Positions 10,873 through 60,927 of a DNA stretch of 64,000 bases are shown in pieces. The notes below the pieces were generated by a model. The model saw nothing but the letters and a program-made list of their open reading frames with translations. It was not told where the DNA came from and made no database searches. The position numbers and the translations under genes were made by a program. The first letter of the stretch is position 1, and every line of letters starts with the position of its first letter. Source of the DNA: Nitrososphaeraceae archaeon (GTDB taxonomy: Archaea > Thermoproteota > Nitrososphaeria > Nitrososphaerales > Nitrososphaeraceae); contig JAICFW010000105.1 in assembly GCA_025923455.1 (NCBI GenBank), positions 458 through 64,457 on the forward strand. Direction: 5' to 3'.

Positions 10873-11079
10873 TCAGATCTCTTCGTCCAGATCTTCAAAT
10901 GCTCTTGCCTTTGAAATCTCATGTAGTCTCATAAATGTCAGTCTCTCAAATTCCCCATTATTCAAAATCCCCTTATTCTCTAGTAATTCTACTAGAGTAG
11001 TAATCTTGATATTTAATTCGTCCTGCAATGATAATTCCTTACCTGTTATTTTTCTTTTTGAAGACTGTTTCTTCCTCAT
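10873..11079 (-). CDS. Small conserved hypothetical protein
   Basis: ORF 10873..11163. The likelier start is the ATG at 11079 (MRKKQSSK...LVELLENKGIL). Confidence 0.6.
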   Translation of the reverse strand: MRKKQSSKRKITGKELSLQDELNIKITTLVELLENKGILNNGEFERLTFMRLHEISKARAFEDLDEEI

Positions 11080-26657: not shown

Positions 26658-27797
26658 TTGTCAACTAATTTAATTTTACCACACGGTGGTAAATTAATCA
26701 ATAAACAAACTAAAAGAAATCATGATGATCTAAAATCGTTCGAGGTGTCTCTCGATATTAGAACAGATGCTGAAAATATAGCTACAGGGGTTTTTAGTCC
26801 ACTTGAAGGTTTCATGACTCAAGAAGATTTTCTAAACGTGCTTAACGAAGGACGATTGAGTAACGGTATTCCATGGACCATTCCCATCATTGTTGATACG
26901 AAAAAAGAAGTCGCCGAGCATATGAAGGATCTAGGTGATATTGTTCTTGGTTCAGATGGCCAAGAATTTGCTATACTTCACGTTGACGAAATCTATGCTT
27001 ACAACAAGGATGATATTGCAACTGCAGTATATGGTACCAACGATGTTAACCATCCTGGTGTAAACAGACTCTCTAAAATGCATGAATTCCTAGTAGGCGG
27101 AAAAATGGAAGTTTTTCAAATGAAGGAACATGATAAGATCCAAAAGTTTAGGATGCATCCAACAGAAACTCGTGCAGAAATTGTCAAGAGAGGCTGGAAG
27201 ACTGTGGTAGGTTTTCAAACAAGGAATGTGCCGCACGTTGCCCATGAAATGTTACAGAAGGCCGCTTTGAACATATACGATGGTTTGTTTGTCAATCCGT
27301 TAATTGGCAAAAAAAAGATAGGCGATTTTACAGATAGTTTGATAATAGATGCATATGAGTCATTAATCAGGAATTATTTTCCCAAAAATAGGGTATTGTT
27401 TTCAACAATCCATACATTGATGAGGTATGCGGGTCCACGTGAAGCTATTCACCACGCTATCATGCGGAAGAATTTTGGATGCACACACTTCATAGTAGGC
27501 AGGGATCATGCCGGTGTGGGCGACTATTATCAACCATTTGCAGCTCAAGAAATATTCAACGAATATCCTGATCTGGAAATTGAGCCAGTTGTCTTTCCAT
27601 CATTTTATTTTTGCAAAACATGTATGTCCTATGCCAACGAAAAGACTTGTCCCCATGGTGCAGAGTCAAAAGAGGAGCTGAGTGGCACTATGATTCGAAA
27701 AATGGTAAATTCAGGTAAAGTACCAGAAAAGCATTTAATGCGTCCAGAAATTTCTGATTTAATTCTTAGATCAGAAAAACCATTTGTAGTTGATTAG
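26658..27797 (+). CDS. sat: Sulfate adenylyltransferase
   Basis: PHGG, FSPLEGF, FQTRNVPH.AHE, MRYAGPREA and GRDHAGVG motifs. Confidence 0.97.
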   Translation: MSTNLILPHGGKLINKQTKRNHDDLKSFEVSLDIRTDAENIATGVFSPLEGFMTQEDFLNVLNEGRLSNGIPWTIPIIVDTKKEVAEHMKDLGDIVLGSDGQEFAILHVDEIYAYNKDDIATAVYGTNDVNHPGVNRLSKMHEFLVGGKMEVFQMKEHDKIQKFRMHPTETRAEIVKRGWKTVVGFQTRNVPHVAHEMLQKAALNIYDGLFVNPLIGKKKIGDFTDSLIIDAYESLIRNYFPKNRVLFSTIHTLMRYAGPREAIHHAIMRKNFGCTHFIVGRDHAGVGDYYQPFAAQEIFNEYPDLEIEPVVFPSFYFCKTCMSYANEKTCPHGAESKEELSGTMIRKMVNSGKVPEKHLMRPEISDLILRSEKPFVVD

Positions 27798-27799
27798 GC

Positions 27800-28495
27800 T
27801 TGATTGGAACACTGAGAGTTGGATTAATTTTCGCGGTATTGTTGATAGTATACCCCACGTTTACAATCAATGCACAGAGTGTTGTTCACGATGTAATCAA
27901 AACAAAAAATTCAGAAAGATTTGATGTTGATTACAATGCATCCAATACTTTTCGAAGACAACCTGTGGTCTATCAATTTTCACAACCAATACAAACAAAT
28001 TGGCAATTTACAATTCAAAACAACCTGTCCTATCTAGATAGCGCTGATGCAAAGAGTGTAATAAAGATCAAAGAGCCTGCGCCGAGCGAGAAATTCATAG
28101 AACTTGCCATGTTTAGTGAAAAAACTGGAAAATTCTGGGCAGCCATCAATACAAACGAATCGGGATATATCAAAGTATATGAGCGTGATCAGGACGGCTG
28201 GTCTAGGGATCAACCCATTTTTGTAGCGCATGCAAACAACCAGGGTCTAACCATAACAAATGGCAAGAGAATAATAATTGACAAGCTATCAATAGATGAT
28301 TTTGTTGTTGGTTCGGTATCAATATATGGTAAAGATGAATTAACAAGTCCAGACAATTCAAACGCTGGTACTATTTCATTCGATATCATATTTGGTAATC
28401 CTGCGGAATCTCCACTATATTTCGTACCATTAATAACCATCATAGCTATTGGATTAATAGTACTTGTTTTGCTTATCAGAAAAAAACGGGATTAG
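27800..28495 (+). CDS. Hypothetical protein with signal peptide and C-terminal membrane anchor
   Basis: N-terminal hydrophobic signal and C-terminal TM helix ending RKKRD. Confidence 0.75.
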   Translation: MIGTLRVGLIFAVLLIVYPTFTINAQSVVHDVIKTKNSERFDVDYNASNTFRRQPVVYQFSQPIQTNWQFTIQNNLSYLDSADAKSVIKIKEPAPSEKFIELAMFSEKTGKFWAAINTNESGYIKVYERDQDGWSRDQPIFVAHANNQGLTITNGKRIIIDKLSIDDFVVGSVSIYGKDELTSPDNSNAGTISFDIIFGNPAESPLYFVPLITIIAIGLIVLVLLIRKKRD

Positions 28496-37548: not shown

Positions 37549-38334
37549 ATGAGTCAAATCAATATAGTTAAAAACAAACCAGCTTTATTGATTGACGTCA
37601 TAATCGATAATCAGTCAAATAAAGTATTGGTAGTAAGCGATTTGCATATGGGCAGGACAGATTGGTCACAAAATAATGACATCGCATTTGATTGGTATCA
37701 CATCACAACAGAAATTGAGACTGAGCTGCGGGATATTGTTGTTTCAAACAAAGTAGATTCTATGGTTTTACTTGGTGATATTAAAAACAATATCTATAAA
37801 GTAGTAAGGGATGATTGGAATTTAATTCCAAAATTTTTACATTCATTGTCCACATTCTGCCAAGTATATTTAATCCCTGGAAATCATGACTCAAAGATAG
37901 GATTGGTAACGCCGGAGAATATCCATCTAATGGGAGTTAAAGGTATGGTACTAGGTGACATTCTCCTGACACACGGACATACGTTTCCCTCTGAGCTCAG
38001 ATCAAATATTAATAAAATTATTATGGGACACTTACATCCTACATTTTTCAGAGAAAACAGTGTTTTGAATGGACAAAAGATTTGGATTTTTCTGAAGGTA
38101 AAAAAGGAATCTATTTTCCCGAGTACAAAAGGATCACTAGAACTAGTAATGTTACCGTCATATAATAAATATGTTTATGGGAGCTACAGAGTGAGAAACA
38201 AGAGAACAAATTCACCAATTTTAAAAAAGATACTAAGAAAGGAGATTATCGAAAAGTGCTTAATAGTGTCAATAGATGGTACCATTCTAGGTAATGAAAA
38301 TCTACTAGGAGAAGTCTTTAACTCCTCGCTCTAG
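37549..38334 (+). CDS. Calcineurin-like metallophosphoesterase
   Basis: SDLH, LGD, GNHD, HGH and GHLHP motifs. Confidence 0.92.
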   Translation: MSQINIVKNKPALLIDVIIDNQSNKVLVVSDLHMGRTDWSQNNDIAFDWYHITTEIETELRDIVVSNKVDSMVLLGDIKNNIYKVVRDDWNLIPKFLHSLSTFCQVYLIPGNHDSKIGLVTPENIHLMGVKGMVLGDILLTHGHTFPSELRSNINKIIMGHLHPTFFRENSVLNGQKIWIFLKVKKESIFPSTKGSLELVMLPSYNKYVYGSYRVRNKRTNSPILKKILRKEIIEKCLIVSIDGTILGNENLLGEVFNSSL

Positions 38335-41300
38335 TCAATATGATATTTGGATAATGGGTTTATTGATGGTTTATTCTTATTTCGCCACTCTAAACAGTGT
38401 ATGAATGAAATGGCTGATTCAACGGTGGTAAGAACAGGTACTCCCATTTCTACAGCCTTTCTTCTAATTTGATATTCATCGTCTAGCATTCCTACGTACT
38501 TTTCAATGGTAGAAGTAGATGGAATGTTAATTATAAAATCTATTTTCTTGTCATAAAGGAGATCTGCAATATTTGGTTTTCTTACCGGTTCACTAATTTT
38601 GTGAACTTCTTGCACATTTGTAGTAATATTGTTCTTGATAAATTCAGCAGTGTGTTCTGTTGCAAGTAAATTAAATTTCATAGAGTTTATGAGTGAAATT
38701 AAAGAAAGCATTTTTTCTTTATTTTTTTGACCTCCTATGGTTATTAGGGCCGATCCTGAAAGTGGTAAATTGTATCCTGCTGCTTCATAAGCCTTTGACA
38801 AGGCATCATAGAAACTATTACCATGACAAGCAACTTCTCCTGTTGATTGCATTTCGACTCCCAATACAATGTCTGACCCTTCTAATTGCATAAAAGAAAA
38901 CTGGGGTACTTTTATTCCAAAACCGCTTATTTTTAGCCAGGGTTCATTAAGGCCATCCGGCAAGTTCCCGTCAATTATGGCTTTGGATGCTAGCGAAATT
39001 AAATTAATCCCAACTATCTTTGAAACAAATGGCGTAGTTCTAGAGGCTCTGACATTTGCCTCAATAACATATACCTCATCATCCTTGACCAAGTATTGGA
39101 TATTGAGCGGACCCTTCACTTCTAATTTTGTTGCAATCATGTTAGAGTAATCCACAATAGTATTCATTGTTTGTCTGTTCAACCTCCATGGAGGTATGCA
39201 CATCATTGCGTCTCCAGAGTGGATTCCTGCGTTATCAATGTGCTCAATTAAGGCTCCTATTATGACATCCTTTCCATTACACACCGCATCTACTTCTACT
39301 TCAGACGAATCCTGAAAGAATTTACTAATCACAATAGGGTACTCTGGACTTACTTGTGCCGCTTCATTGATGTATCGCTCTAATTGTTCATCATTCCAAA
39401 TTACTTTCATGGCTGCACCACTTAACACATATGATGGCCTTACTAAGACAGGGAATCCTACATTTTGAGAAAATATTTTTGCTCCATCCAAGTCTGTGAA
39501 TTTATTCCAAGGAGGTTGTTTTATATTCAATGAATCGAGCAATCTACTAAATTTTTCCCTATCTTCTGCCATGTCAGTATGTGTACTATCGGTACCAATA
39601 ATCGGAATATTTAGAAGTCCTAATTTAGGTACAAGGTTATTTGCAGTCTGTCCTCCCACACAAGTGACTATTCCCTTAGGGTGCTCCTTTTCATATATAT
39701 CTAGAATGCGTTCTAAAGATAGTTCCTCGAAATAGAGTCTATCTGAGATATCATAATCGGTTGAAACTGTTTCTGGGTTACAATTAATAACTGAAACTGA
39801 TTTGATACCATTCTTTTTTAGGCCCCACACCATGTTAACCGTACCCCAATCAAATTCTACACTACTTCCTATTCTATACGGCCCTGCTCCAAGCACCATA
39901 ACCGAATTTGTTTCTTTCCTATAAACAATATCATCTTTATCTCCCCCATACGTCAGATAAAGATAATTTGTCTTTGCAGGCCATTCTGCTGCTAATGTAT
40001 CAACTTGCTTTACTACAGGATTAATGCCAAGTTTTTGCCTTAACTTTCTGGCACTTATTTCCTTTATACCTAAGCACTGACCTATTTGTGAATCTGAAAA
40101 TCCATACCTTTTTGCATCTCGCAACATACCTTCAGAAATATCAGATACATCGACATTGTGTAGTTTATCAAACATTTCCACAATATTTTTGATTTTTATC
40201 AGAAACCATGAATCAATTATAGAAAGTTTGTTTATTCTGGATATGGGAATTCCCAGTCGGATGGCCTTTACCACATCAAATAATATTTCATCACTTGGAT
40301 ACAACAATTTTTGTTCGACTAGTTCTAATTCTTCCTTCAAATCCTGTTCATTTCCAACAAGACCCATCCTTCCCGTATCAGTCATTCGGATCGCTTTTTG
40401 AAGTATTTCTTCAAATGTTCTACCGATTGCCATGACTTCACCAACTGATTTCATACTTGTGCCAATCCTTCTGTTGACCAATTCAAATTTTTTAAAGTCC
40501 CACCTTGGCATTTTTAGAACTACATAATCTAAGGAGGGTTCAAAACAAGCTGTTGTCGCCTTGGTTATACTATTCACAAGTTCTGTAAGTGAGTAACCAA
40601 GTCCCATTTTTGCAGCCATATACGCCAATGGGTATCCAGTTGCTTTGCTGGCCAGCGCCGATGACCTTGAAAGTCTTGCGTTTATTTCTATTGCACAATA
40701 TGACTCACTTAACGGATCTAAACCAAATTGAATATTACATTCGCCAACAATACCGCAGTATTCTACTGCTCTAATTGCAGCAGATCGTAATCTATGATAT
40801 TCTTCATTATTGATCGTTTGCGACGGGGCGATAACTATATTATCTCCTGTATGAACTCTCATACCCAGAACGTTTTCCATGTTGCAAATCGCAATACTGT
40901 TACCAGTATAATCTCTCATCATTTCATATTCAATCTGTTTCCAAGTTCCAATGTATTTTTCAATCAGAACCTGATTTACTATACTTAATGAAAGTCCTCG
41001 TTGAACAATCTCTTGAAGTTCATACTCATTATGTGCTACTCCTCCTCCCTTTCCACCAAGAGTGTATGCAACTCTGATTATTACCGGATAACCAATTCTT
41101 TGTGCGACATCTAATGCTTCTTTTATATTGTATGCAGGTGAACTTTCAAGTACCGGAACGTTACTATTGATCATGGCTGTCTTAAATTGTTGTCGATCTT
41201 CAGTAATCTTTATGCTATTTATGGGAGTGCCCAATACTTGAATTTTATACTTTTCTAAAATACCTTCATCGTGTAGCGACACTCCACAATTTAATGCGGT

Positions 41301-41583
41301 TTGTCCACCAAAACCTAACATAATTGAATCAGGGAGTTCTTTCTCTATTATTTGGCTTATGTAATATCCGTTTACTGGTAACAAATACACTTTATTTGCG
41401 AATCTAGTGTCTGTTTGGATAGTTGCAATATTGGGATTTACCAATACGGTCTTAATTCCTTCTTCGGATAAAGCTTTGAGACATTGTGAACCGGAATAGT
41501 CGAATTGACGGTCAGAATATCTGACTTTCGCCCGCTTCTCCGATTTTTATTGCTCCGCTTCCTAATACTATTGTTTTCTTTAT
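38331..41583 (-). CDS. carB: Carbamoyl-phosphate synthase large subunit, split gene: join(41583..41527, 41504..38331), about 1076 aa after splicing
   Basis: ORF 38331..41444 has both ATP-grasp halves and the MGS domain but lacks the N-terminus. KKTIVLGSGAIKIGEAGE (41583-41527) and FDYSGSQCLKAL (from 41504) lie upstream in different frames, separated by 22 nt. Confidence 0.95.
41505..41526 (-). other. Putative 22-nt BHB-type mRNA intron in carB
   Basis: GGCG-AA^A-GUCAGA-UAU-UCUGAC-CGUC-AA^U: 4-bp central helix, 3-nt bulge and 6-bp intron hairpin. Excision restores the frame and the GEFDY motif. Confidence 0.85.
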
Positions 41584-42806
41584 GGTTTCATTTTTTGGAA
41601 AATTTTCCCACCTCCATTCATTCTATCGATTTTAATTGACTTTTCATCCGGTTTATCTTGTTCAACAAGATGTTTAAATTCTTCGAAAACATACATGCAG
41701 TCATAAGGACCAGGAGATGCTTCTGGATGAAATTGTACCGCAATTATGGGTTTTGACTCATGCTTGATACCTTCAATGGTATTGTCATCAGAGTTAATAT
41801 ACCAAGCTTTAAATCCAGTTTTATTAAGTGTGTTTGCTTTTACCCCGTATCCGTGATTCTGGCTGGTGATAAAGGTTTGATTGGTATTCAGGTCTGTACA
41901 TCCTTTGTTCTGACCTCTATGTCCGAATTTTAATTTGTATGTGTCGCCACCGGCAGCAAGAGCTATGATTTGGTTACCTAGACATATTCCTAGCATTGGT
42001 AATGTTGATTCAAACAGTTTAACAACAGTTTCAATGGTGCTATTGCACATTTTTGGATCTCCGGGACCGTTACTTATTATAACACCCTTTGGATTGTATG
42101 AAATAATCTTGCTGAATGATGTATCCCATGGAACTTGAATAACCCTATAACCCATACTCAAGATATTGCGAATAATACTATATTTCGTACCTGTATCGAT
42201 AAGAACAATAGGTTCCAACGCTCGGTCACCATATTCTACTGTTTTGTCAATGGATACTTGAGACATAAAGTTAAACCCGTCATATTTGGTCTTTTTAATA
42301 GTACTCAACAATTCTTTAGGGTTTATTTCGTTTTTTGAAACAGACAATGCACCATTCATTACTCCCTTTATTCGAATTTTCTTTGTCAAATCACGTGTAT
42401 CGATTCCACTAATACCTGGTATTTTTTCATCATATAGCCACTGATCTAAAGTCTTATGACATTCCCTGTGATTTGCGACACTAGATATCTCATGAACTAT
42501 CAATCCAGAAACTTGAATGCTATCAGATTCAAAATACTTTGGTAATCCATAGCTGTCTTTAATAGAGTTGCTCGGAACTCCATAGTTTCCAATGAGTGGA
42601 TAAGTCAAACAAAGAATTTGTCCTCTATATGATGGATCAGTCAAAGTCTCAGTATAACCCACCATGCCCGTGTTAAAAACGAATTCTCCGCCTACTGTCG
42701 TTGGATAGCCAAAACCTATACCTCGATACATTGACCCGTCTTCTAAAACTATCATCGCATTAAGGCCTATGTGATTAGCATGAATTGTAGGAATTTTGAC
42801 CCTCAT
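41580..42806 (-). CDS. carA: Carbamoyl-phosphate synthase small subunit
   Basis: GEFVFNTGMVGY, TDPSYRGQ, SNGPGDP, GICLGNQ (catalytic Cys) and QFHPEASPGP motifs. Confidence 0.97.
   Translation of the reverse strand: MRVKIPTIHANHIGLNAMIVLEDGSMYRGIGFGYPTTVGGEFVFNTGMVGYTETLTDPSYRGQILCLTYPLIGNYGVPSNSIKDSYGLPKYFESDSIQVSGLIVHEISSVANHRECHKTLDQWLYDEKIPGISGIDTRDLTKKIRIKGVMNGALSVSKNEINPKELLSTIKKTKYDGFNFMSQVSIDKTVEYGDRALEPIVLIDTGTKYSIIRNILSMGYRVIQVPWDTSFSKIISYNPKGVIISNGPGDPKMCNSTIETVVKLFESTLPMLGICLGNQIIALAAGGDTYKLKFGHRGQNKGCTDLNTNQTFITSQNHGYGVKANTLNKTGFKAWYINSDDNTIEGIKHESKPIIAVQFHPEASPGPYDCMYVFEEFKHLVEQDKPDEKSIKIDRMNGGGKIFQKMKP
41609..41615 (-). promoter_or_regulatory. Shine-Dalgarno-like GGAGGTG inside the 3' end of carA, upstream of carB exon 1
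   Basis: Near-perfect anti-16S motif. It lies 7 nt before an in-frame TTT-CCA-AAA and about 25 nt before the ATA that overlaps the carA stop. Confidence 0.5.
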
Positions 42807-47896: not shown

Positions 47897-49144
47897 TTAC
47901 TTCGTATGATTATATCGGAATTTATCTAATTTTATTAGTTCGTGATATGATCCAAACTTTGATACTTCTGCAGTATCTAGCAATGATTCATTTCCATTGG
48001 CACTCTCATCAAAAATTTTGACAATTCGATAAACCGAGTTTCTCTGGGCGGGTACTCTACCTGCAGAGACTATCAAAGATCTTATTTCCTTGGGTTTCAT
48101 TATCTGTCCATATTCAGATCCTGCCGAGGTGGATATGCTTTCGTTAATCAAAGTTCCACCAAAATCATTTACTCCAGCTTCAAGAAGTAGTTGAGACATT
48201 TTTGTACCCTCCTTGACCCAAGATACCTGGATATTATCAATAAAATTGTTGAGCATTATTCTAGAAACCGCGTGCATCTTTATCACGTCCTGACCTGTAG
48301 GACCAGGAGAAATTCCTTTTACTAAATTGTGATTATACATTGGAGCTTCTTTGTGAACAAAACCGAGAGGTACAAATTCAGTAAACCCTCCTGTCTCTTT
48401 CTGAATCGACCTTATCAGTCCTAAATGCTTGGCTATGTGTTCCGTTGTTTCTATATGACCGTACATTATAGTAGATGTAGTAGGAATCTTTAGTTTGTGG
48501 GAGGTCGTAATAACGTTAATCCAATCATCCACGGTGATTCTACCTGGAGAGACTATATCTCTTAAATCCTGATCCAAAATCTCCGCAGCCGTTCCGGGCA
48601 AACTTCCTAATCCCGCCTCTTTTAACAGACTCAAATAGTCCTTCACAGATAATCCTGATCTGGCACATCCATACATTATTTCTTCAGGAGAAAAAGCATG
48701 AATATGTATGTCGGGTAATTCTTTTTTTATCGCTCTGCAAATATCGACGTATAATAAACCATCCATCTTTGGGGGTAGACCTGCTTGGATACAAATTTCA
48801 GTCGCACCCAATTTCCATGCCTCTACCGCTCTCCTAACGACCTCTGTTATCGGAAGAAAATATCCTTCTTCATTTCTAAAATCTCTACTGTAGGCACAGA
48901 AACCGCATCTTTTGATACAAACATTTGTAAAATTGATATTCCTGTTGATAACAAAAGTGACCCTGTCGCCGACTTTATTTCTCCTCAATCTGTCTGCAAC
49001 CATTGTAGTCATGATCATTTCAGTACCTTTTGTTAGCAACAATTCGACAGCTTGTTTTATCGAAATGTTTTTAGAATCAAGGGCCTGATTCAAAGTTTCA
49101 GAGACAACGGGATCTATGTCCTTTAACATAGATTCAAAAATCAA
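47897..49144 (-). CDS. cofH: FO synthase subunit CofH (radical SAM)
   Basis: NINFTNVC...CGFCAY, GSLPGTAAEIL, TSTIMYGH and NIQVSWVK motifs. The TTG start at 49144 forms a TTGA overlap with the cofG stop. Confidence 0.93.
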   Translation of the reverse strand: MIFESMLKDIDPVVSETLNQALDSKNISIKQAVELLLTKGTEMIMTTMVADRLRRNKVGDRVTFVINRNINFTNVCIKRCGFCAYSRDFRNEEGYFLPITEVVRRAVEAWKLGATEICIQAGLPPKMDGLLYVDICRAIKKELPDIHIHAFSPEEIMYGCARSGLSVKDYLSLLKEAGLGSLPGTAAEILDQDLRDIVSPGRITVDDWINVITTSHKLKIPTTSTIMYGHIETTEHIAKHLGLIRSIQKETGGFTEFVPLGFVHKEAPMYNHNLVKGISPGPTGQDVIKMHAVSRIMLNNFIDNIQVSWVKEGTKMSQLLLEAGVNDFGGTLINESISTSAGSEYGQIMKPKEIRSLIVSAGRVPAQRNSVYRIVKIFDESANGNESLLDTAEVSKFGSYHELIKLDKFRYNHTK

Positions 49145-50331
49145 CTTAACTCCTCCTTTACAAGGCCAGAACCATCCGAAAGTGGGGCTATGTAGTTCCA
49201 AAGATTATTTGGAACAAATTCACTTTTGTTCACGAGAAACTCTGGATAGATTGCAAGTCTACCTCTAAAATCATAACCTGCTTTATGAGTTGCCTGTTTA
49301 ACATCCTTAATATCGGGCCATGGCGACTCCGGATTTACAAAATCAATTGTCAATGGAGATATACCTCCCCAGTCATTAATTCCTGAATTAATGTATGTCG
49401 AATAATAGTTAGGACTAAGATTAGGTGGAACCTGAATGTTCATATGGGGCATAATAATTCTTGCCAGAGAAACAGTTAGTAAGAACAAATCTTGTGTTGG
49501 AGGCATAAAGCTCCCCATTTTAGTATTATATTTTGGAACGTGGTTTTGCATTATCACTTCTTGGATATTAGCATACTTTTGATTAATTTCCCTAATTAGT
49601 ATTAAAGAATCAACAATTTCTTCTAACGTTTCCCCAATTCCAATTAACAACCCTGTTGTTATAGGTATTTTTAACTTTCCTGCATTTTCAAGTACTCGAG
49701 TTCTTGCTCTGGGATTTTTACTGGGTGCATATTCATGTGGCATGTTTTTATCTCCAAGTCGTTCACTAGACGTCTCCAGCATACATCCTAGGCTAACATT
49801 CGTTTTCTTTAATAGTGACAATTCATCATAGTTCAATGTGCCTGCATTTGTATGTGGCAACAGTCCAGTTTCTTCTAAAATCAAGTTACTGATCTGGTCT
49901 ACATATTCTATTGTAGTTGAGCAATCATTTTTTCTTAACCATTCTCTATATTCTGGATATTTTTGCTCAGGTCTTTCTCCCGTCACTATTAATGCTTCGG
50001 TACATTTCAATCGTTTACCTTGACTTGCGATGTGTAAAGCCTGTTCCTTTGTGAGAATTGACAAATCAGAATCCGATAACTCTTTTTTGTAAGTGCAGTA
50101 AGAGCAGGTATCCCTGCACAGATTTATCAAATTTATGAATACCTTTCTAGAATATGTAATTAGATCATTTTTGCATTCATCCCTAATTGTTTTCGCTAGC
50201 ATACACAGAGATATTGTATCATATTTTTCTATTAGTTCAAGTACTTCATCTTTACTAATTGGGAAATTCTGTACGTTTTGAACTATGTCATTTATTGTAG
50301 ATAGATTTATTCCATCCAGTTGAGATTTCAA
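49141..50331 (-). CDS. cofG: FO synthase subunit CofG (radical SAM)
   Basis: ITYSRKVF.NL.NLCRDTCSYC, PHTNAG, TTGLLIGIGE, IQVPPNL and DWGGISPLT motifs. Confidence 0.93.
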   Translation of the reverse strand: MKSQLDGINLSTINDIVQNVQNFPISKDEVLELIEKYDTISLCMLAKTIRDECKNDLITYSRKVFINLINLCRDTCSYCTYKKELSDSDLSILTKEQALHIASQGKRLKCTEALIVTGERPEQKYPEYREWLRKNDCSTTIEYVDQISNLILEETGLLPHTNAGTLNYDELSLLKKTNVSLGCMLETSSERLGDKNMPHEYAPSKNPRARTRVLENAGKLKIPITTGLLIGIGETLEEIVDSLILIREINQKYANIQEVIMQNHVPKYNTKMGSFMPPTQDLFLLTVSLARIIMPHMNIQVPPNLSPNYYSTYINSGINDWGGISPLTIDFVNPESPWPDIKDVKQATHKAGYDFRGRLAIYPEFLVNKSEFVPNNLWNYIAPLSDGSGLVKEELS

Positions 50332-57060: not shown

Positions 57061-57800
57061 ATGAAGGCGAAATGGACTACTGTCTTTGCAATCTTCGCCA
57101 TTTCATCAGCACTTGCTATAGCATTTTTCATAGGACTTACAGTATCAACCCTAATTCAAAGTCAATATCCACTTTTATTTATCGTAGCAATAGTTGTAGC
57201 ATTCACCGCATGGTTCGGAAGGGGAACTGATATTTTGAGTCTTATACGTGAATGGCACAAGGAAAGAGTAGAAGAAGAAAGGAGAATTAGGAGCATACCC
57301 AAGTTTATCATCACACATGATGAAGGTTCAACGCAGTTTGTTCGTGATAAAAGATTATTTAAAAGAGAAGGATATGGATTAGGAAAACGAAAGTTCTAAC
57401 AATTGGTGTTTATAATGATAGTGAAGGCGTAGCAGAGAATTGCAGTGCAAGTTTTAACATTGATAATGTAATTAAGACTAAGTTTCCGACAGATGAAAGA
57501 AAATTTCTAAGATGGGCTAGTTATGATACTGTTTTTATGAAAATAGGTTCACATAAAACCGAATATCTTAATGTGGTGTTCTTTAGTGAAATCTCATTCC
57601 ATGACATGAATGTTTTCGTTGCACAACAAGATAGTATTAATGAACCGAAAATCCCCAGAGATATGGATGGTTTTACATCTGGAGAGCACATATTCACAAT
57701 AACAATTGAACCAGACATCGGACAGAAAAAAGTGGCTAAATTTAGAGTTAAGGCTACTACAAATTGGAACGATTTTTCGATGTCATTAATCGAATCTTAG
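57061..57800 (+). pseudogene. Membrane-anchored hypothetical gene split by a frameshift near 57360
   Basis: ORF 57061..57399 has two TM segments. The -1 frame is open from 57363 to 57800 (WIRKTKVLTIGVYN...MKIGSHK...) and includes ORF 57537..57800. Confidence 0.55.
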
Positions 57801-58039
57801 TCTCTGTACGTCTTCAAGACCATCGACATGGTTTGTGATTTTCGAAAACCTCCTTATCATAAAACTCCTTACGACACATGTAACAGAATATGTTTTTAGA
57901 TCCCTTTCCTTCGGTCATAGTTAATGAGAGTCATGGTTGATTGAAAACAAGTAAGTGTTATAGAGATCTATACAATGACTGCCATTGTTCCCAAATTGTG
58001 TAAATTAAAAAATCAATAGATCGTAATGGAACTGTTAAT

Positions 58040-58198
58040 TTACAATATAATCACGCCAGATTCAACTGCCTTTACTTTTTCTATTTCCAAAATAGACTGC
58101 AATTGTTTTACCTCGTCTTTTGTAAGGGAATCATCTATCAATTTTCCAGTAAGTTGCTGTCTTTGTTTGATTTGTTCAGTCGTTAGGATTGTGCTCAT
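58040..58198 (-). CDS. Small helical protein (52 aa) coupled to the upstream ORF
   Basis: MSTILTTEQIKQRQQLTGKL...ESGVIIL. The ATG overlaps the TGA of 58195..58422 as ATGA. Confidence 0.5.
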   Translation of the reverse strand: MSTILTTEQIKQRQQLTGKLIDDSLTKDEVKQLQSILEIEKVKAVESGVIIL

Positions 58199-58422
58199 GT
58201 TTTAGATTCGACCTCTCCTCGCTTAAGTACACTATCGACAAGATTTATGAAACCCTTCTCCGTTTCGAACTTGCTAAATGCAGATAACAAGGGATTATCA
58301 TTTATTCGTCTTTCAAGCATATTAATTTTCCAATTTAATCTTGCTATGTAAACCGCAATCGGTACTGAAAATACAAGTAATGCTATAATGAGTTGAATGG
58401 TTTCGCTGGTTAATTCAACCAA
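58195..58422 (-). CDS. Small single-TM hypothetical protein
   Basis: 75 aa, with one TM segment followed by a coiled-coil-like segment. Confidence 0.55.
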   Translation of the reverse strand: MVELTSETIQLIIALLVFSVPIAVYIARLNWKINMLERRINDNPLLSAFSKFETEKGFINLVDSVLKRGEVESKT

Positions 58423-58491
58423 TAGAGATACTGTTCATATCAATTATTTAAGGAAACAAAGCCGTATATAGTCAAATCACATATTGTTATT

Positions 58492-58611
58492 ATGAATATA
58501 AAATCGCTATTTACTCGAATCAGAACATGCTGTAATATAACAAAGGAAGAAAAGGAAAAGGCATCAAAACAGGTCATTAAGGATACTAAGTCAGACTTTC
58601 CAGAAGATTAA
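58492..58611 (+). CDS. Possible 39-aa microprotein
   Basis: MNIKSLFTRIRTCCNITKEEKEKASKQVIKDTKSDFPED. ATG start downstream of an AT-rich TATA-like tract. Confidence 0.3.
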   Translation: MNIKSLFTRIRTCCNITKEEKEKASKQVIKDTKSDFPED

Positions 58612-58706
58612 CCACTTTTTGCCGTTTATGTCAATGTCCCTTAATCGAACAGAATCTAGTTTAGAAATCCTTAATAGATATTAAACTATGTTGGACTATC
58701 TCGAGT

Positions 58707-58913
58707 ATGAAACATCTGAATATCTTATTTCCTACGATTTCGGTAATCTTTGCTACCATGCTAACTGCTACTGTTTCTGCTAGTTCGTCTGACGATTATT
58801 GTTACGATCATGAACTGGAGGATTCCATTTGTCATGAAACCCAAAAGTCGTGCGAAGTTGAGCGAAAAAATGACCTTATGGCAGAAGGTAAATGCTATAA
58901 GGCCATAATGTAG
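58707..58913 (+). CDS. Small secreted four-Cys protein
   Basis: Signal peptide (TVSA-S), then YCYD..ICHE..SC..GKCY. Confidence 0.65.
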   Translation: MKHLNILFPTISVIFATMLTATVSASSSDDYCYDHELEDSICHETQKSCEVERKNDLMAEGKCYKAIM

Positions 58914-59543
58914 AATATTTTATTATCTTTTGCGAATAAATATATCCATCTCACCGGACTGATGGGAGTACAACCCATAACCTCGGCGATTGTATCTATA
59001 TGTATCTTCCTTGATTGGAATTAATTTAATAATTTGTTGTACATATCTAATCGCCTAGTCCGACTATCAAGATTTAATGTAATATGATTATTTCATCCCA
59101 TGTTCCAGTTGTCGAAAGCATATAGTATTTGCTTTGATCCGATGACTCTAAGTGTATGATATCACCTGGCGTAATCTGAATTTGAAATAATCTGTTCAGG
59201 AATTACAGGAAACTTGGCCCTGCTACTATGCTATTTGCTTCCTTTTTAAAAGATTATCATAGTACTCTTTCAAAGTATCCGCTAGACCAAAACTACTAAG
59301 TTTTTCAACTAATTCAGACAAATCAACAAATTGTGAATTCCACTTGTAGACCATAAGAATTGCCATTGTAAAATCTCTATCATAACATATAAGCTGCTAT
59401 TTATATATAACATTTCTCACTTGATGTGCGATTGCCGATCATTGATATGGTACATGAGTATCGACTTTAAGGAGTTTCCATTTGCGAGTTCCTCGGTTAT
59501 GATATTACCAAGACTTATAAACGAATGAGTGATAATATACTTA

Positions 59544-59681
59544 TTGCATAACTCTTGTTCGATATGCGGTAATGACTTCAACAATCTAGTTAGCGGTGTT
59601 ATTTATCTAAGTACAGTAAAGGGAAAACTAGAATTCTGTTCAGATAAATGCTGCAGAGATTTCCTAAAGAAAAATTTGTAG
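59544..59681 (+). CDS. TRASH/YHS-like metal-binding microprotein (45 aa)
   Basis: CSICG...LEFCSDKCCRDF. TTG start at 59544, with an alternative GTG at 59529. Confidence 0.55.
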   Translation: MHNSCSICGNDFNNLVSGVIYLSTVKGKLEFCSDKCCRDFLKKNL

Positions 59682-59840
59682 ATCTGCGCCTCTGGATTTA
59701 ATACTTGTTTCTCTATGTTAGTATTATTTAACGTAAGATTGAACGAATAGTATTGTCAATGAATTACGAGGGGAATGCATTTTATAGATCTGAAAAATAA
59801 GGCGAATAACCATTAATACACGTGGATGTAATAAGATCTA

Positions 59841-60002
59841 ATGAATAAATCCCCAAAGTGTATAGAACAACAACATGATATGTGTGACGGAAACATAATA
59901 GAAATGATCAATAACTCCAACGTAACAAGATTATGTGAATGTCAGTGTCATGACAATATGTACAAACTAGTTAGTAGAATGCAGGCTGCAAATAATCAGT
60001 AG
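59841..60002 (+). CDS. Cys/His-rich microprotein (53 aa)
   Basis: MNKSPKCIEQQHDMCDG...LCECQCHD. Confidence 0.55.
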   Translation: MNKSPKCIEQQHDMCDGNIIEMINNSNVTRLCECQCHDNMYKLVSRMQAANNQ

Positions 60003-60422
60003 TTTTCCCACCAGATTTTAATATTAAGGACATCTTTGGGATGTTTGTGCTTAGATTTAGGACTAACCCTTTTATTGTTTGTTGGTTATTGCCCTATAAG
60101 TGTCGACAAGTCCCAAGAATATACGCATGACTGTAGGCTATTAGTGGATTGGCCTATCATTTTTAATTCCATATTATAACATGATCGGCAATTCTGGTCA
60201 TCTTGACCTATTTTATAGTTTGTTGTCTATTGCTTAACCAACGCTACCAAATAAAACCGGTGGGCATGTTGTATCGTACCAAATCAACCATCAACTCATC
60301 CCACCAGCAGTCATATGTTGTTATAATATTTGTAAATTAGGTAAGTTACAATGGTAACATCCAATGGTCGGATTATTTTTGGCCGTTATCGCAAACGGCA
60401 CTAGTTCCGCCGGATATTTTAT

Positions 60423-60626
60423 TTAAATCTCGTAGATGATTAGCGCAGAATAATTCACATCTGAGGTTTGCCTAGCGTCCTGCAAAAGTTTGGGAGTAGA
60501 AGAAAATTTTATGTCAATAAGTCTGAATGTACTACCGTGCTGCTTTGTTATGTCTTCCATAAATTTATCGATATTGTCTGTCACCGATGTTAGTCTGTCT
60601 GATTCAAATCCTATTGTCTTTATCAT
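60423..60626 (-). CDS. Small protein resembling the Cse60 family
   Basis: MIKTIGFE...IDKFM...LIDIKFS...YSALIIYE pattern. Confidence 0.55.
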   Translation of the reverse strand: MIKTIGFESDRLTSVTDNIDKFMEDITKQHGSTFRLIDIKFSSTPKLLQDARQTSDVNYSALIIYEI

Positions 60627-60927
60627 ACCTACCTCATGTTTCTAATTGGCTAAATGCCTTATCTATCTTACCCTTCCCTAAGTTTTTAGAAAGTCCTATT
60701 AAGGAGTATTATAGTAGTACGGGAACATAAATTATACCAACACCCTGGATTAATTCAGCAAATTTTTTACTATCTTTTTACGGATATTGTTCCGCCTCAC
60801 CGAACTGCTGGGAGGATAACTAGCCGTCACTCGTATGTTTGTTTTGTGCATTTGGATTTAACCGGTGTATTGTAAGTTCCGTCAAGTGGGATTTGTTTGC
60901 TAGTGAGTAAATCTATCTTATTCACTA

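Follow-up and report, generated by a model that had tools for sequence, protein, structure and literature searches.

The window analysed here is the whole 64,000-nucleotide (nt) stretch of contig JAICFW010000105.1 from a Nitrososphaeraceae archaeon, in which carA and carB both lie on the minus strand, the two sharing an operon with carA upstream, whose TAA stop (41582-41580) overlaps the first exon of carB. A reading of this DNA from its letters alone (the sequence-only reading) had proposed that carB is interrupted by a 22-nt intron of the bulge-helix-bulge type, and the present analysis concerns this insert, its removal from RNA and its distribution among relatives. The features of the locus are as follows, where ORF denotes open reading frame.

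41580-42806, minus strand: carA, carbamoyl-phosphate synthase glutamine amidotransferase small subunit (ORF; Pfam CPSase_sm_chain, E 4e-47, and GATase, E 5e-52)
41527-41601, minus strand: carB exon 1, 25 codons, (F)PKNETIKKTIVLGSGAIKIGEAGE
41505-41526, minus strand: carB intron, 22 nt, AGUCAGAUAUUCUGACCGUCAA, present in DNA contigs and missing from the RNA contigs of X29 and X38
38331-41504, minus strand: carB exon 2, 1057 codons plus stop, beginning FDYSGSQCLK (ORF in the spliced frame)

The minus strand at 41491-41545 reads AATCGGAGAAGCGGGCGAAAGTCAGATATTCTGACCGTCAATTCGACTATTCCGG, in exact agreement with the letters quoted in the sequence-only reading. Deletion of 41505-41526 (AGTCAGATATTCTGACCGTCAA, 22 nt) joined GGC GAA to TTC GAC TAT and yielded a single open frame to the stop at 38331, the protein across the junction being IKIGEAGEFDYSGSQCLK, with GEAGE/FDYSG rebuilt (here and below a slash marks the junction) and a predicted junction peptide of IGEAGEFDYSGSQCLK. 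As AA flanks both junctions, three deletion offsets give one identical product. When exon 1 was instead translated unspliced, the codon GAA at 41529-41527 was followed by SQIF and then a stop (GEAGESQIF). Translation thus bore out both the restored frame and the frameshifted, prematurely ended alternative that had been described. The length of about 1076 amino acids given for the restored protein presumes a start at ATA 41583-41581 and required correction; counted from the start position of relatives, 41601-41599, the protein comprises 1082 amino acids.

The 22-nt insert was present in contigs of four soil metagenomes, each from a separate study (X1, X3, X8 and X13; depth 7-17), and these contigs matched 41380-41660 with zero differences, so that the insert belongs to the DNA and an assembly artefact is excluded. 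Intron-less alleles of carB were found in none of four DNA runs, and no intron-less sequence within 90% identity was recovered in the searches made. In RNA, a 311-nt contig of depth 26 from a rhizosphere metatranscriptome (X29) matched 41380-41628 without mismatch and omitted exactly 22 nt at 41505, the spliced form being the only one assembled in this library, and the same 22-nt deletion was present in a 454 metatranscriptome from a different study (X38). A 1013-nt contig of the L001 lineage (93% protein identity) in X53, with a depth of 11.5, lacked that lineage's own 22 nt. A third lineage, whose intron ends in ...CGCCAG, was spliced in X35 with the junction GGCGAA/TTTGAC, its intron being retained in the DNA run X8 and in X25, X26 and X28. 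Splicing of carB is therefore demonstrated for three lineages by metatranscriptome contigs, and the RNA junction foreseen in the sequence-only reading is seen at contig level as an exact removal in the window lineage (X29, X38) and in two relatives (X53, X35). In a further lineage, the abundant relative L004, the intron measures 29 nt (L004:2475-2503) and the central helix (see below) is GGCG/CGCA, with a G.A mismatch at its outer pair; a contig of this lineage in X86 breaks exactly at AA plus exon 2, as would be the case with a second (spliced) path, which hints at a second, minor form.

A species-representative scan (one genome per species) returned 80 carB loci, among which seven Nitrososphaeraceae loci were interrupted precisely where the GEAGE codons meet those of FDYSG, by insertions of 21, 22, 22, 28, 28, 29 and 31 nt. 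No insertion was present at this site in any of the 71 loci with contiguous GEAGEFDYSG, which included Nitrosopumilales, other archaea and bacteria. With the introns recovered from metagenome contigs by a DNA-pattern scan, the set grew to 85 distinct members of 18-42 nt, mostly from Nitrososphaeraceae. Sixty-eight of these variants put the frame out of register and the remaining 17, with lengths divisible by three, all hold an in-frame stop, so that no lineage makes CarB without removal of the insert. Insertions at the same site with compensatory changes, for which an alignment of relatives had been suggested, were indeed recovered, the 85 diverged variants keeping the bulge-helix-bulge pairing. 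The protein search likewise found the truncated or wrong-frame N-termini that had been anticipated for automated annotation, with gene callers beginning the CarB of many relatives in the shifted frame, e.g. MNVRSSDRQFDYSG... and ...SEKQAKVNYNDRYFDYSG....

The distribution of the intron is patchy. A Nitrosopolaris-like group bears it, and intact GEAGEFDYSG was found in sequences labelled 'Nitrososphaera sp.' and in one near-identical to a 'Candidatus Nitrosocosmicus sp.' protein. These intron-less sequences nest within intron-bearing clades in a neighbour-joining tree of CarB (360 residues, without bootstrap), and this nesting suggests that the carB intron was lost at least twice. A 20-nt intron occupies the same carB site in L107 (JACXTT010008309.1) and in four similar metagenome loci. 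The CarB of this lineage shares 84% identity with that of a Nitrosopumilus genome assembly, as against 73% with that of the window. In L121, which likewise branches deeply, the carB intron has 23 nt. Nitrososphaeraceae are therefore not the only carriers of the intron, which is probably older than that family or has moved between lineages.

The elements of the fold in the window, all on the minus strand, are listed below.

41529-41532 with 41507-41510, minus strand: central 4-base-pair (bp) helix, GGCG (exon) with CGUC (intron); GGCG/CGYN across variants
41526-41528, minus strand: 5' bulge AAA, with the 5' splice site at 41527/41526, after the second bulge nucleotide
41511-41525, minus strand: inner intron hairpin of 6 bp, GUCAGA (41525-41520), UAU loop, UCUGAC (41516-41511), from fold and covariation
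41502-41506, minus strand: 3' bulge AAUUC, five unpaired nt, with the 3' splice site at 41505/41504, 2 nt 3' of the central helix
41538-41543 with 41491-41496, minus strand: outer exon-exon helix, UCGGAG with UUCCGG (RNAalifold, 102 sequences)

A second outer segment of 3 bp pairs AGC (41536-41534) with G41501, C41499 and U41498, so that the 3' side of the motif runs from the central helix through five unpaired nt to the 3-bp and then the 6-bp exon-exon helix. The 67-nt region folds at -20.2 kcal/mol (z = -3.35), with none of 200 shuffles as stable; the bulge-helix-bulge conformation itself has -19.8 kcal/mol, approximately equal to the minimum-energy fold, whose pairing in the central region differs. 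As loop lengths vary, a full-length intron alignment in MAFFT was avoided and base pairs were formally counted on 98 distinct fixed-length constructs, each with 24 nt of exon on either side of the intron's first 6 and last 12 nt. In these, 98.1% of cells were paired, compared with 17-46% when the partners were slid by 1-3 columns, and the observed covariation score was reached by none of 500 shuffles. RNAalifold applied to 102 sequences independently gave the same fold. The plan common to the variants is exon GGCG-AA, splice site, (A/U/C)-G-Y..stem, loop, stem..R-C-CGYN-A(A/U/G), splice site, UUY GAY exon. Pairs 2-4 of the central helix are paired in 100% of variants and the outermost pair in 82% of the 85 introns (84% of the 98 constructs). 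The first five pairs of the inner helix are 96.5% paired, and all five change on both sides (80 cells), with pair spectra such as UA 67 / CG 25 and GC 57 / UA 11 / AU 8 / CG 7. The 5' bulge has 3 nt, A-A-(A/U/C), the first intron base being A in 78, U in six and C in one of the 85 variants.

All helices named in the sequence-only reading (GGCG/CGUC, GUCAGA/UCUGAC and the outer helix) and its AAA bulge exist at the coordinates given. The placement of the junctions, with a cut after the second nucleotide of each bulge, also stood; the 3' bulge, on the other hand, is not the strict one of 3 nt but the 5-nt AAUUC. Both carB cuts lie 2 nt 3' of the central helix, one on each strand, and a symmetric cut geometry is that of endonuclease cleavage of bulge-helix-bulge substrates. 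For introns ending in AU or AG the offset of the 3' cut is settled, because only that cut keeps the codons GAA/UUY, and the junction in X35 agrees.

The motif extends into codons that are themselves conserved. The outer helix is made from the I-G-E and Y-S-G codons; its cells are 100% paired in intron-bearing genes, with only GC-to-GU changes, against 84% in intron-less genes, in which the helix pre-exists because the protein motif is universal. Within intron-bearing genes, paired four-fold degenerate sites hold only pair-compatible bases (GGA/GGG and TCC/TCU), whereas unpaired four-fold sites show all four bases. In intron-less genes all four bases occur at those same synonymous sites, the first of which pairs in only 24%. 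The central-helix glycine codon is GGC in 28% of intron-less genes as opposed to every intron-bearing locus found outside the pattern scan. On these comparisons, protein-coding exons can be shaped by a splice motif.

Taken with the RNA contigs, carB very probably carries a genuine 22-nt archaeal endonuclease-type intron with a relaxed bulge-helix-bulge fold. Within the unspliced transcript, GGCG at the end of exon 1 would pair with CGUC of the intron as the 4-bp central helix, on one side of which the 6-bp intron hairpin would stack while the exon-exon helix would close the other. Two cuts by the splicing endonuclease, each 2 nt 3' of a strand of the central helix, would fall behind GGCG-AA and CGUC-AA, and an RtcB-type ligase would join GAA to UUC with GEAGEFDYSG restored. 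Synthesis of CarB would then depend on the tRNA-splicing machinery, because unspliced translation stops four codons into the intron. Cleavage by the archaeal enzyme, EndA, leaves 2',3'-cyclic phosphate and 5'-OH ends that RtcB then ligates, and the endonuclease types that accept relaxed motifs are (alpha-beta)2 and epsilon2. Thaumarchaeota have a broad-specificity (alpha-beta)2 endonuclease that accepts relaxed motifs (PMC5829648). Neither endA nor rtcB was among the ten window ORFs scanned, most window ORFs lying outside that scan.

Several points weigh against this account. We infer endonuclease cleavage and RtcB ligation from geometry and the literature, and the strict canonical hBHBh' form does not apply, the consensus 3' bulge being 5 nt (A-A/U/G-U-U-Y) where the canonical one is 3; the carB motif is a relaxed bulge-helix-bulge rather than a strict hBHBh'. 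The metagenome pattern demanded GGCGAA, so that conservation of this hexamer is unbiased only in the ten loci from outside the pattern scan. A further difficulty, for translation of the spliced mRNA, is that exon 1 lacks a canonical start codon. Window-lineage contigs that are unspliced (depth ~3) occur in libraries X25-X27, labelled 'METATRANSCRIPTOMIC WGS', the L001 lineage is unspliced in X52, an RNA-labelled library, and the L004 lineage is only unspliced in four true RNA runs from four studies (depth 5-13), a pattern for which DNA carry-over, pre-mRNA or poor or conditional splicing could account. The RNA evidence consists of assembled contigs rather than raw reads, in which minor forms and spliced-to-unspliced ratios are invisible.

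The post-transcriptional control raised as a possibility in the sequence-only reading was considered in the form of a switch or throttle, in which splicing would be real but conditional and would set the supply of CarB and hence arginine and pyrimidine synthesis, on the model of frame-shifting XBP1/HAC1 splicing in eukaryotes. Such a role would refine the explanation by a genuine intron and does not exclude it. The presence of both spliced and unspliced forms in RNA libraries is in its favour, as are the L004 runs together with the contig break in X86, and so is the long retention of an intron whose precise loss is possible, to judge by the two or more losses suggested by the tree. Unspliced contigs can, however, stem from DNA carry-over or nascent RNA, and minor forms drop from view in contigs; the intron can also be kept neutrally, since its imprecise loss would be lethal, and cbf5 introns have no known regulatory role (PMC7714728). 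In our assessment conditional splicing is possible but unlikely. A broader proposal appears more doubtful, namely that the carB intron is both a conditional splice switch and the tip of a wider class of 18-42-nt bulge-helix-bulge micro-introns in protein genes of soil ammonia-oxidising archaea, which would tie central metabolism to the tRNA-splicing machinery, make many 'frameshifted pseudogenes' functional and add the non-canonical start as a second layer of control.

A genuine intron was also weighed against explanations that dispense with splicing. The 'spliced' contigs could be artefacts of a reverse transcriptase skipping the hairpin, for which a stable hairpin and a flanking 2-nt repeat (AA) might promote template switching, or they could come from co-occurring strains without the insertion in their DNA, metatranscriptomes being mixtures of strains. 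Yet the same exact deletion recurs in four independent libraries (Illumina and 454) and three lineages, always restoring the frame and a universally conserved motif; X29, at depth 26, assembled the spliced form only; the lineage whose intron ends in AG has a 1-nt repeat only and still shows the junction GAA/TTT; and no intron-less allele turned up in the DNA runs or within 90% identity in the searches. An artefact of this kind is very improbable. Decoding without splicing, by ribosomal frameshifting or translational bypass, or a decaying pseudogene would fit the frameshift seen by gene callers and the missing canonical start of exon 1. Against decoding without splicing, RNA lacking the insert exists, the inserts span 18-42 nt in all three phases and contain stops, which is unfit for a single recoding signal, and what is conserved is the bulge-helix-bulge pairing and not a slippery site. 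As to a pseudogene, comparison of the window with L001 as spliced coding sequences gave a ratio of nonsynonymous to synonymous substitution (dN/dS) of 0.034 over 1082 codons (dS = 1.14), so that decay is excluded and carB is under strong purifying selection, not a pseudogene. We regard this pair of explanations as almost certainly wrong.

The start of translation in carB was analysed separately, the relevant feature being the following.

41609-41615, minus strand: Shine-Dalgarno-like GGAGGUG, 7 nt upstream of the conserved carB start position, with the same motif and spacing in relatives that start with ATG or TTG

In most lineages exon 1 comprises 25 codons from an ATG or TTG located 6-8 nt past GGAGG. 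The start position 41601-41599 in the window is TTT where relatives have ATG or TTG, and a non-canonical codon is also found here in L001, L004 and ~40% of intron-bearing loci. By clade, the codons are TTT (22 distinct sequences, the window clade), TCG (15), GCG (4), ATA (9) and ATT (5), and in these clades no in-frame ATG, GTG or TTG is present in exon 1 after the upstream stop. The N-terminal P-K-N-E-x-I-K-K of CarB is conserved despite the non-canonical start codon. Across loci the carA stop lies 11-19 nt downstream of the carB start position, the genes overlapping, and translation of carB may begin by non-canonical initiation or by termination-reinitiation coupled to carA. Neither RNA editing nor a further intron accounts for the missing start, as the X29 RNA contig follows the DNA colinearly and without difference as far as 41628. 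Ribosomal frameshifting by -1 out of carA and into carB was likewise discarded, there being no canonical slippery heptamer in the carA frame and the other clades with non-canonical starts differing in sequence at this place.

The nearest known system is cbf5, which encodes a pseudouridine synthase and whose pre-mRNA intron in Crenarchaeota was reportedly described by Watanabe in 2002 and Yoshinari in 2006; its hosts are Aeropyrum, Sulfolobales and Desulfurococcales. The cbf5 and carB introns are alike in being short, of the bulge-helix-bulge type, within coding sequence and mis-annotated as frameshifts, in having hosts with a heteromeric (alpha-beta)2 endonuclease (for carB by phylum, from the literature) and in a patchy distribution that implies gains and losses. 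In contrast to cbf5, carB encodes a metabolic enzyme rather than an RNA-modification enzyme, is interrupted at another site and belongs to another phylum, that of mesophilic ammonia oxidisers; the introns have no sequence relationship, those of carB are shorter, down to 18 nt, and splicing of carB is known from metatranscriptome contigs rather than from reverse-transcription PCR or in-vitro cleavage. Since the gene and insertion site differ from those of the cbf5 intron lineage, the carB intron is an independent case.

Other systems offer partial parallels. Archaeal tRNA and rRNA introns share with carB the 4-bp central helix, the 3-nt 5' bulge, cuts 2 nt into the bulges, a flanking intron helix and presumably the same enzymes. 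The carB case differs in that the host RNA is an mRNA, the 3' bulge has 5 nt and the outer helix consists of G-E and S-G codons with constrained synonymous sites. The nomenclature of Marck and Grosjean distinguishes hBHBh' from the relaxed forms HBh' and BHL. The XBP1/HAC1 system of eukaryotes (IRE1 with RtcB or Trl1) resembles carB in a tiny frame-shifting intron (26 nt in XBP1), a protein endonuclease with an RNA ligase and a removal step that sets the protein; it differs in its use of IRE1, its twin stem-loops and its regulation by stress, and the likeness is an analogy only. HVO_1309 of Haloferax volcanii is, like carB, a non-cbf5 mRNA substrate of the tRNA-splicing endonuclease, but its intron lies in the 5'-untranslated region, so that the reading frame is uninterrupted, and the euryarchaeal endonuclease type is reported to cleave canonical motifs only (PMC7714728).

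Full-text literature searches, with subscription journals outside their coverage, found no paper on a carB intron, in line with the sequence-only reading, which was aware of none. Yokobori 2009 (PMC2738675) reported splicing confirmed in no archaeal gene besides cbf5, and Schwarz 2020 (PMC7714728) lists cbf5 only, together with the Haloferax intron in the 5'-untranslated region. By these accounts carB is the second known archaeal protein-coding sequence with an endonuclease-type intron, after cbf5 had stood alone for more than twenty years (PMC2738675; PMC7714728). What is new is not the class of mechanism, which is established, but the gene, the phylum, the intron's small size and the depth of the comparison. 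The range of such introns is broadened to another phylum, to abundant mesophilic soil nitrifiers and to an essential metabolic enzyme, and the comparative support is unusually strong, with 85 natural variants showing covariation and in-vivo splicing visible in public metatranscriptomes. A mis-called carB would distort metabolic reconstructions and produce apparent arginine or pyrimidine auxotrophs. If cultured strains resemble the 'Nitrososphaera sp.' and 'Candidatus Nitrosocosmicus sp.' sequences in their intact site, this would explain why the intron went unnoticed. The carB variants also constitute a natural substrate series for the rules of the (alpha-beta)2 endonuclease and for intron gain and loss.

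Other features of carB were noted in relatives. A linker insertion of 230-290 nt follows residue ~406 (window protein) in L005:3673-3959, L017:3685-3917 and L081:4056-4304; it is low-complexity (...TNTNTN..., ...QPSDRPKVSNEP...) and lies between the first ATP-grasp half and the oligomerisation domain. The insertion is in frame in L005 and L017, and the frame changes inside it in the long-read L081, most likely by a single-base indel error. Extra breaks of carB in the long-read assemblies L081, L082 and L083 were set aside, as they look like single-base indels in low-complexity linkers or homopolymers; folD of L083 is also fragmented. A 702-residue protein, P0013, from a 134-kb ENA contig is a Nitrosopumilales-like CarB with an intact N-terminus, in which ~40 internal residues (...KTLMKKILRNICKLMMILFCIMLCLPSNKVCQPKKF...) resemble, judged on the protein sequence alone, an out-of-frame read between two compensating frameshifts.

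Within the rest of the window, ARAGORN found no tRNA and Rfam no RNA family; there is consequently no local tRNA intron for comparison, and the carB motif matches no curated RNA family. A generic bulge-helix-bulge scan of both window strands returned 1126 loose candidates, filtered for frame merging with 50 codons per side, a threshold that would miss short first exons like that of carB. The only two that merge frames with long ORFs on both sides join unrelated neighbours. One, at 27755-27831, which would merge sat with a membrane protein, was taken as chance. The other, of 83 nt (49197-49279), which would yield an FbiC-like fusion of cofG and cofH, was judged a chance match. These two genes, putative FO-synthase subunits named from their translations, lie on the minus strand (cofG 49141-50331; cofH 47897-49201) and overlap by 61 nt (49141-49201) in different frames. 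The ~3.5 kb at 57400-60900 contain small ORFs only (65-87 amino acids) and match no Rfam family; the single weak tandem repeat of the window lies outside them, at 10946-10978.

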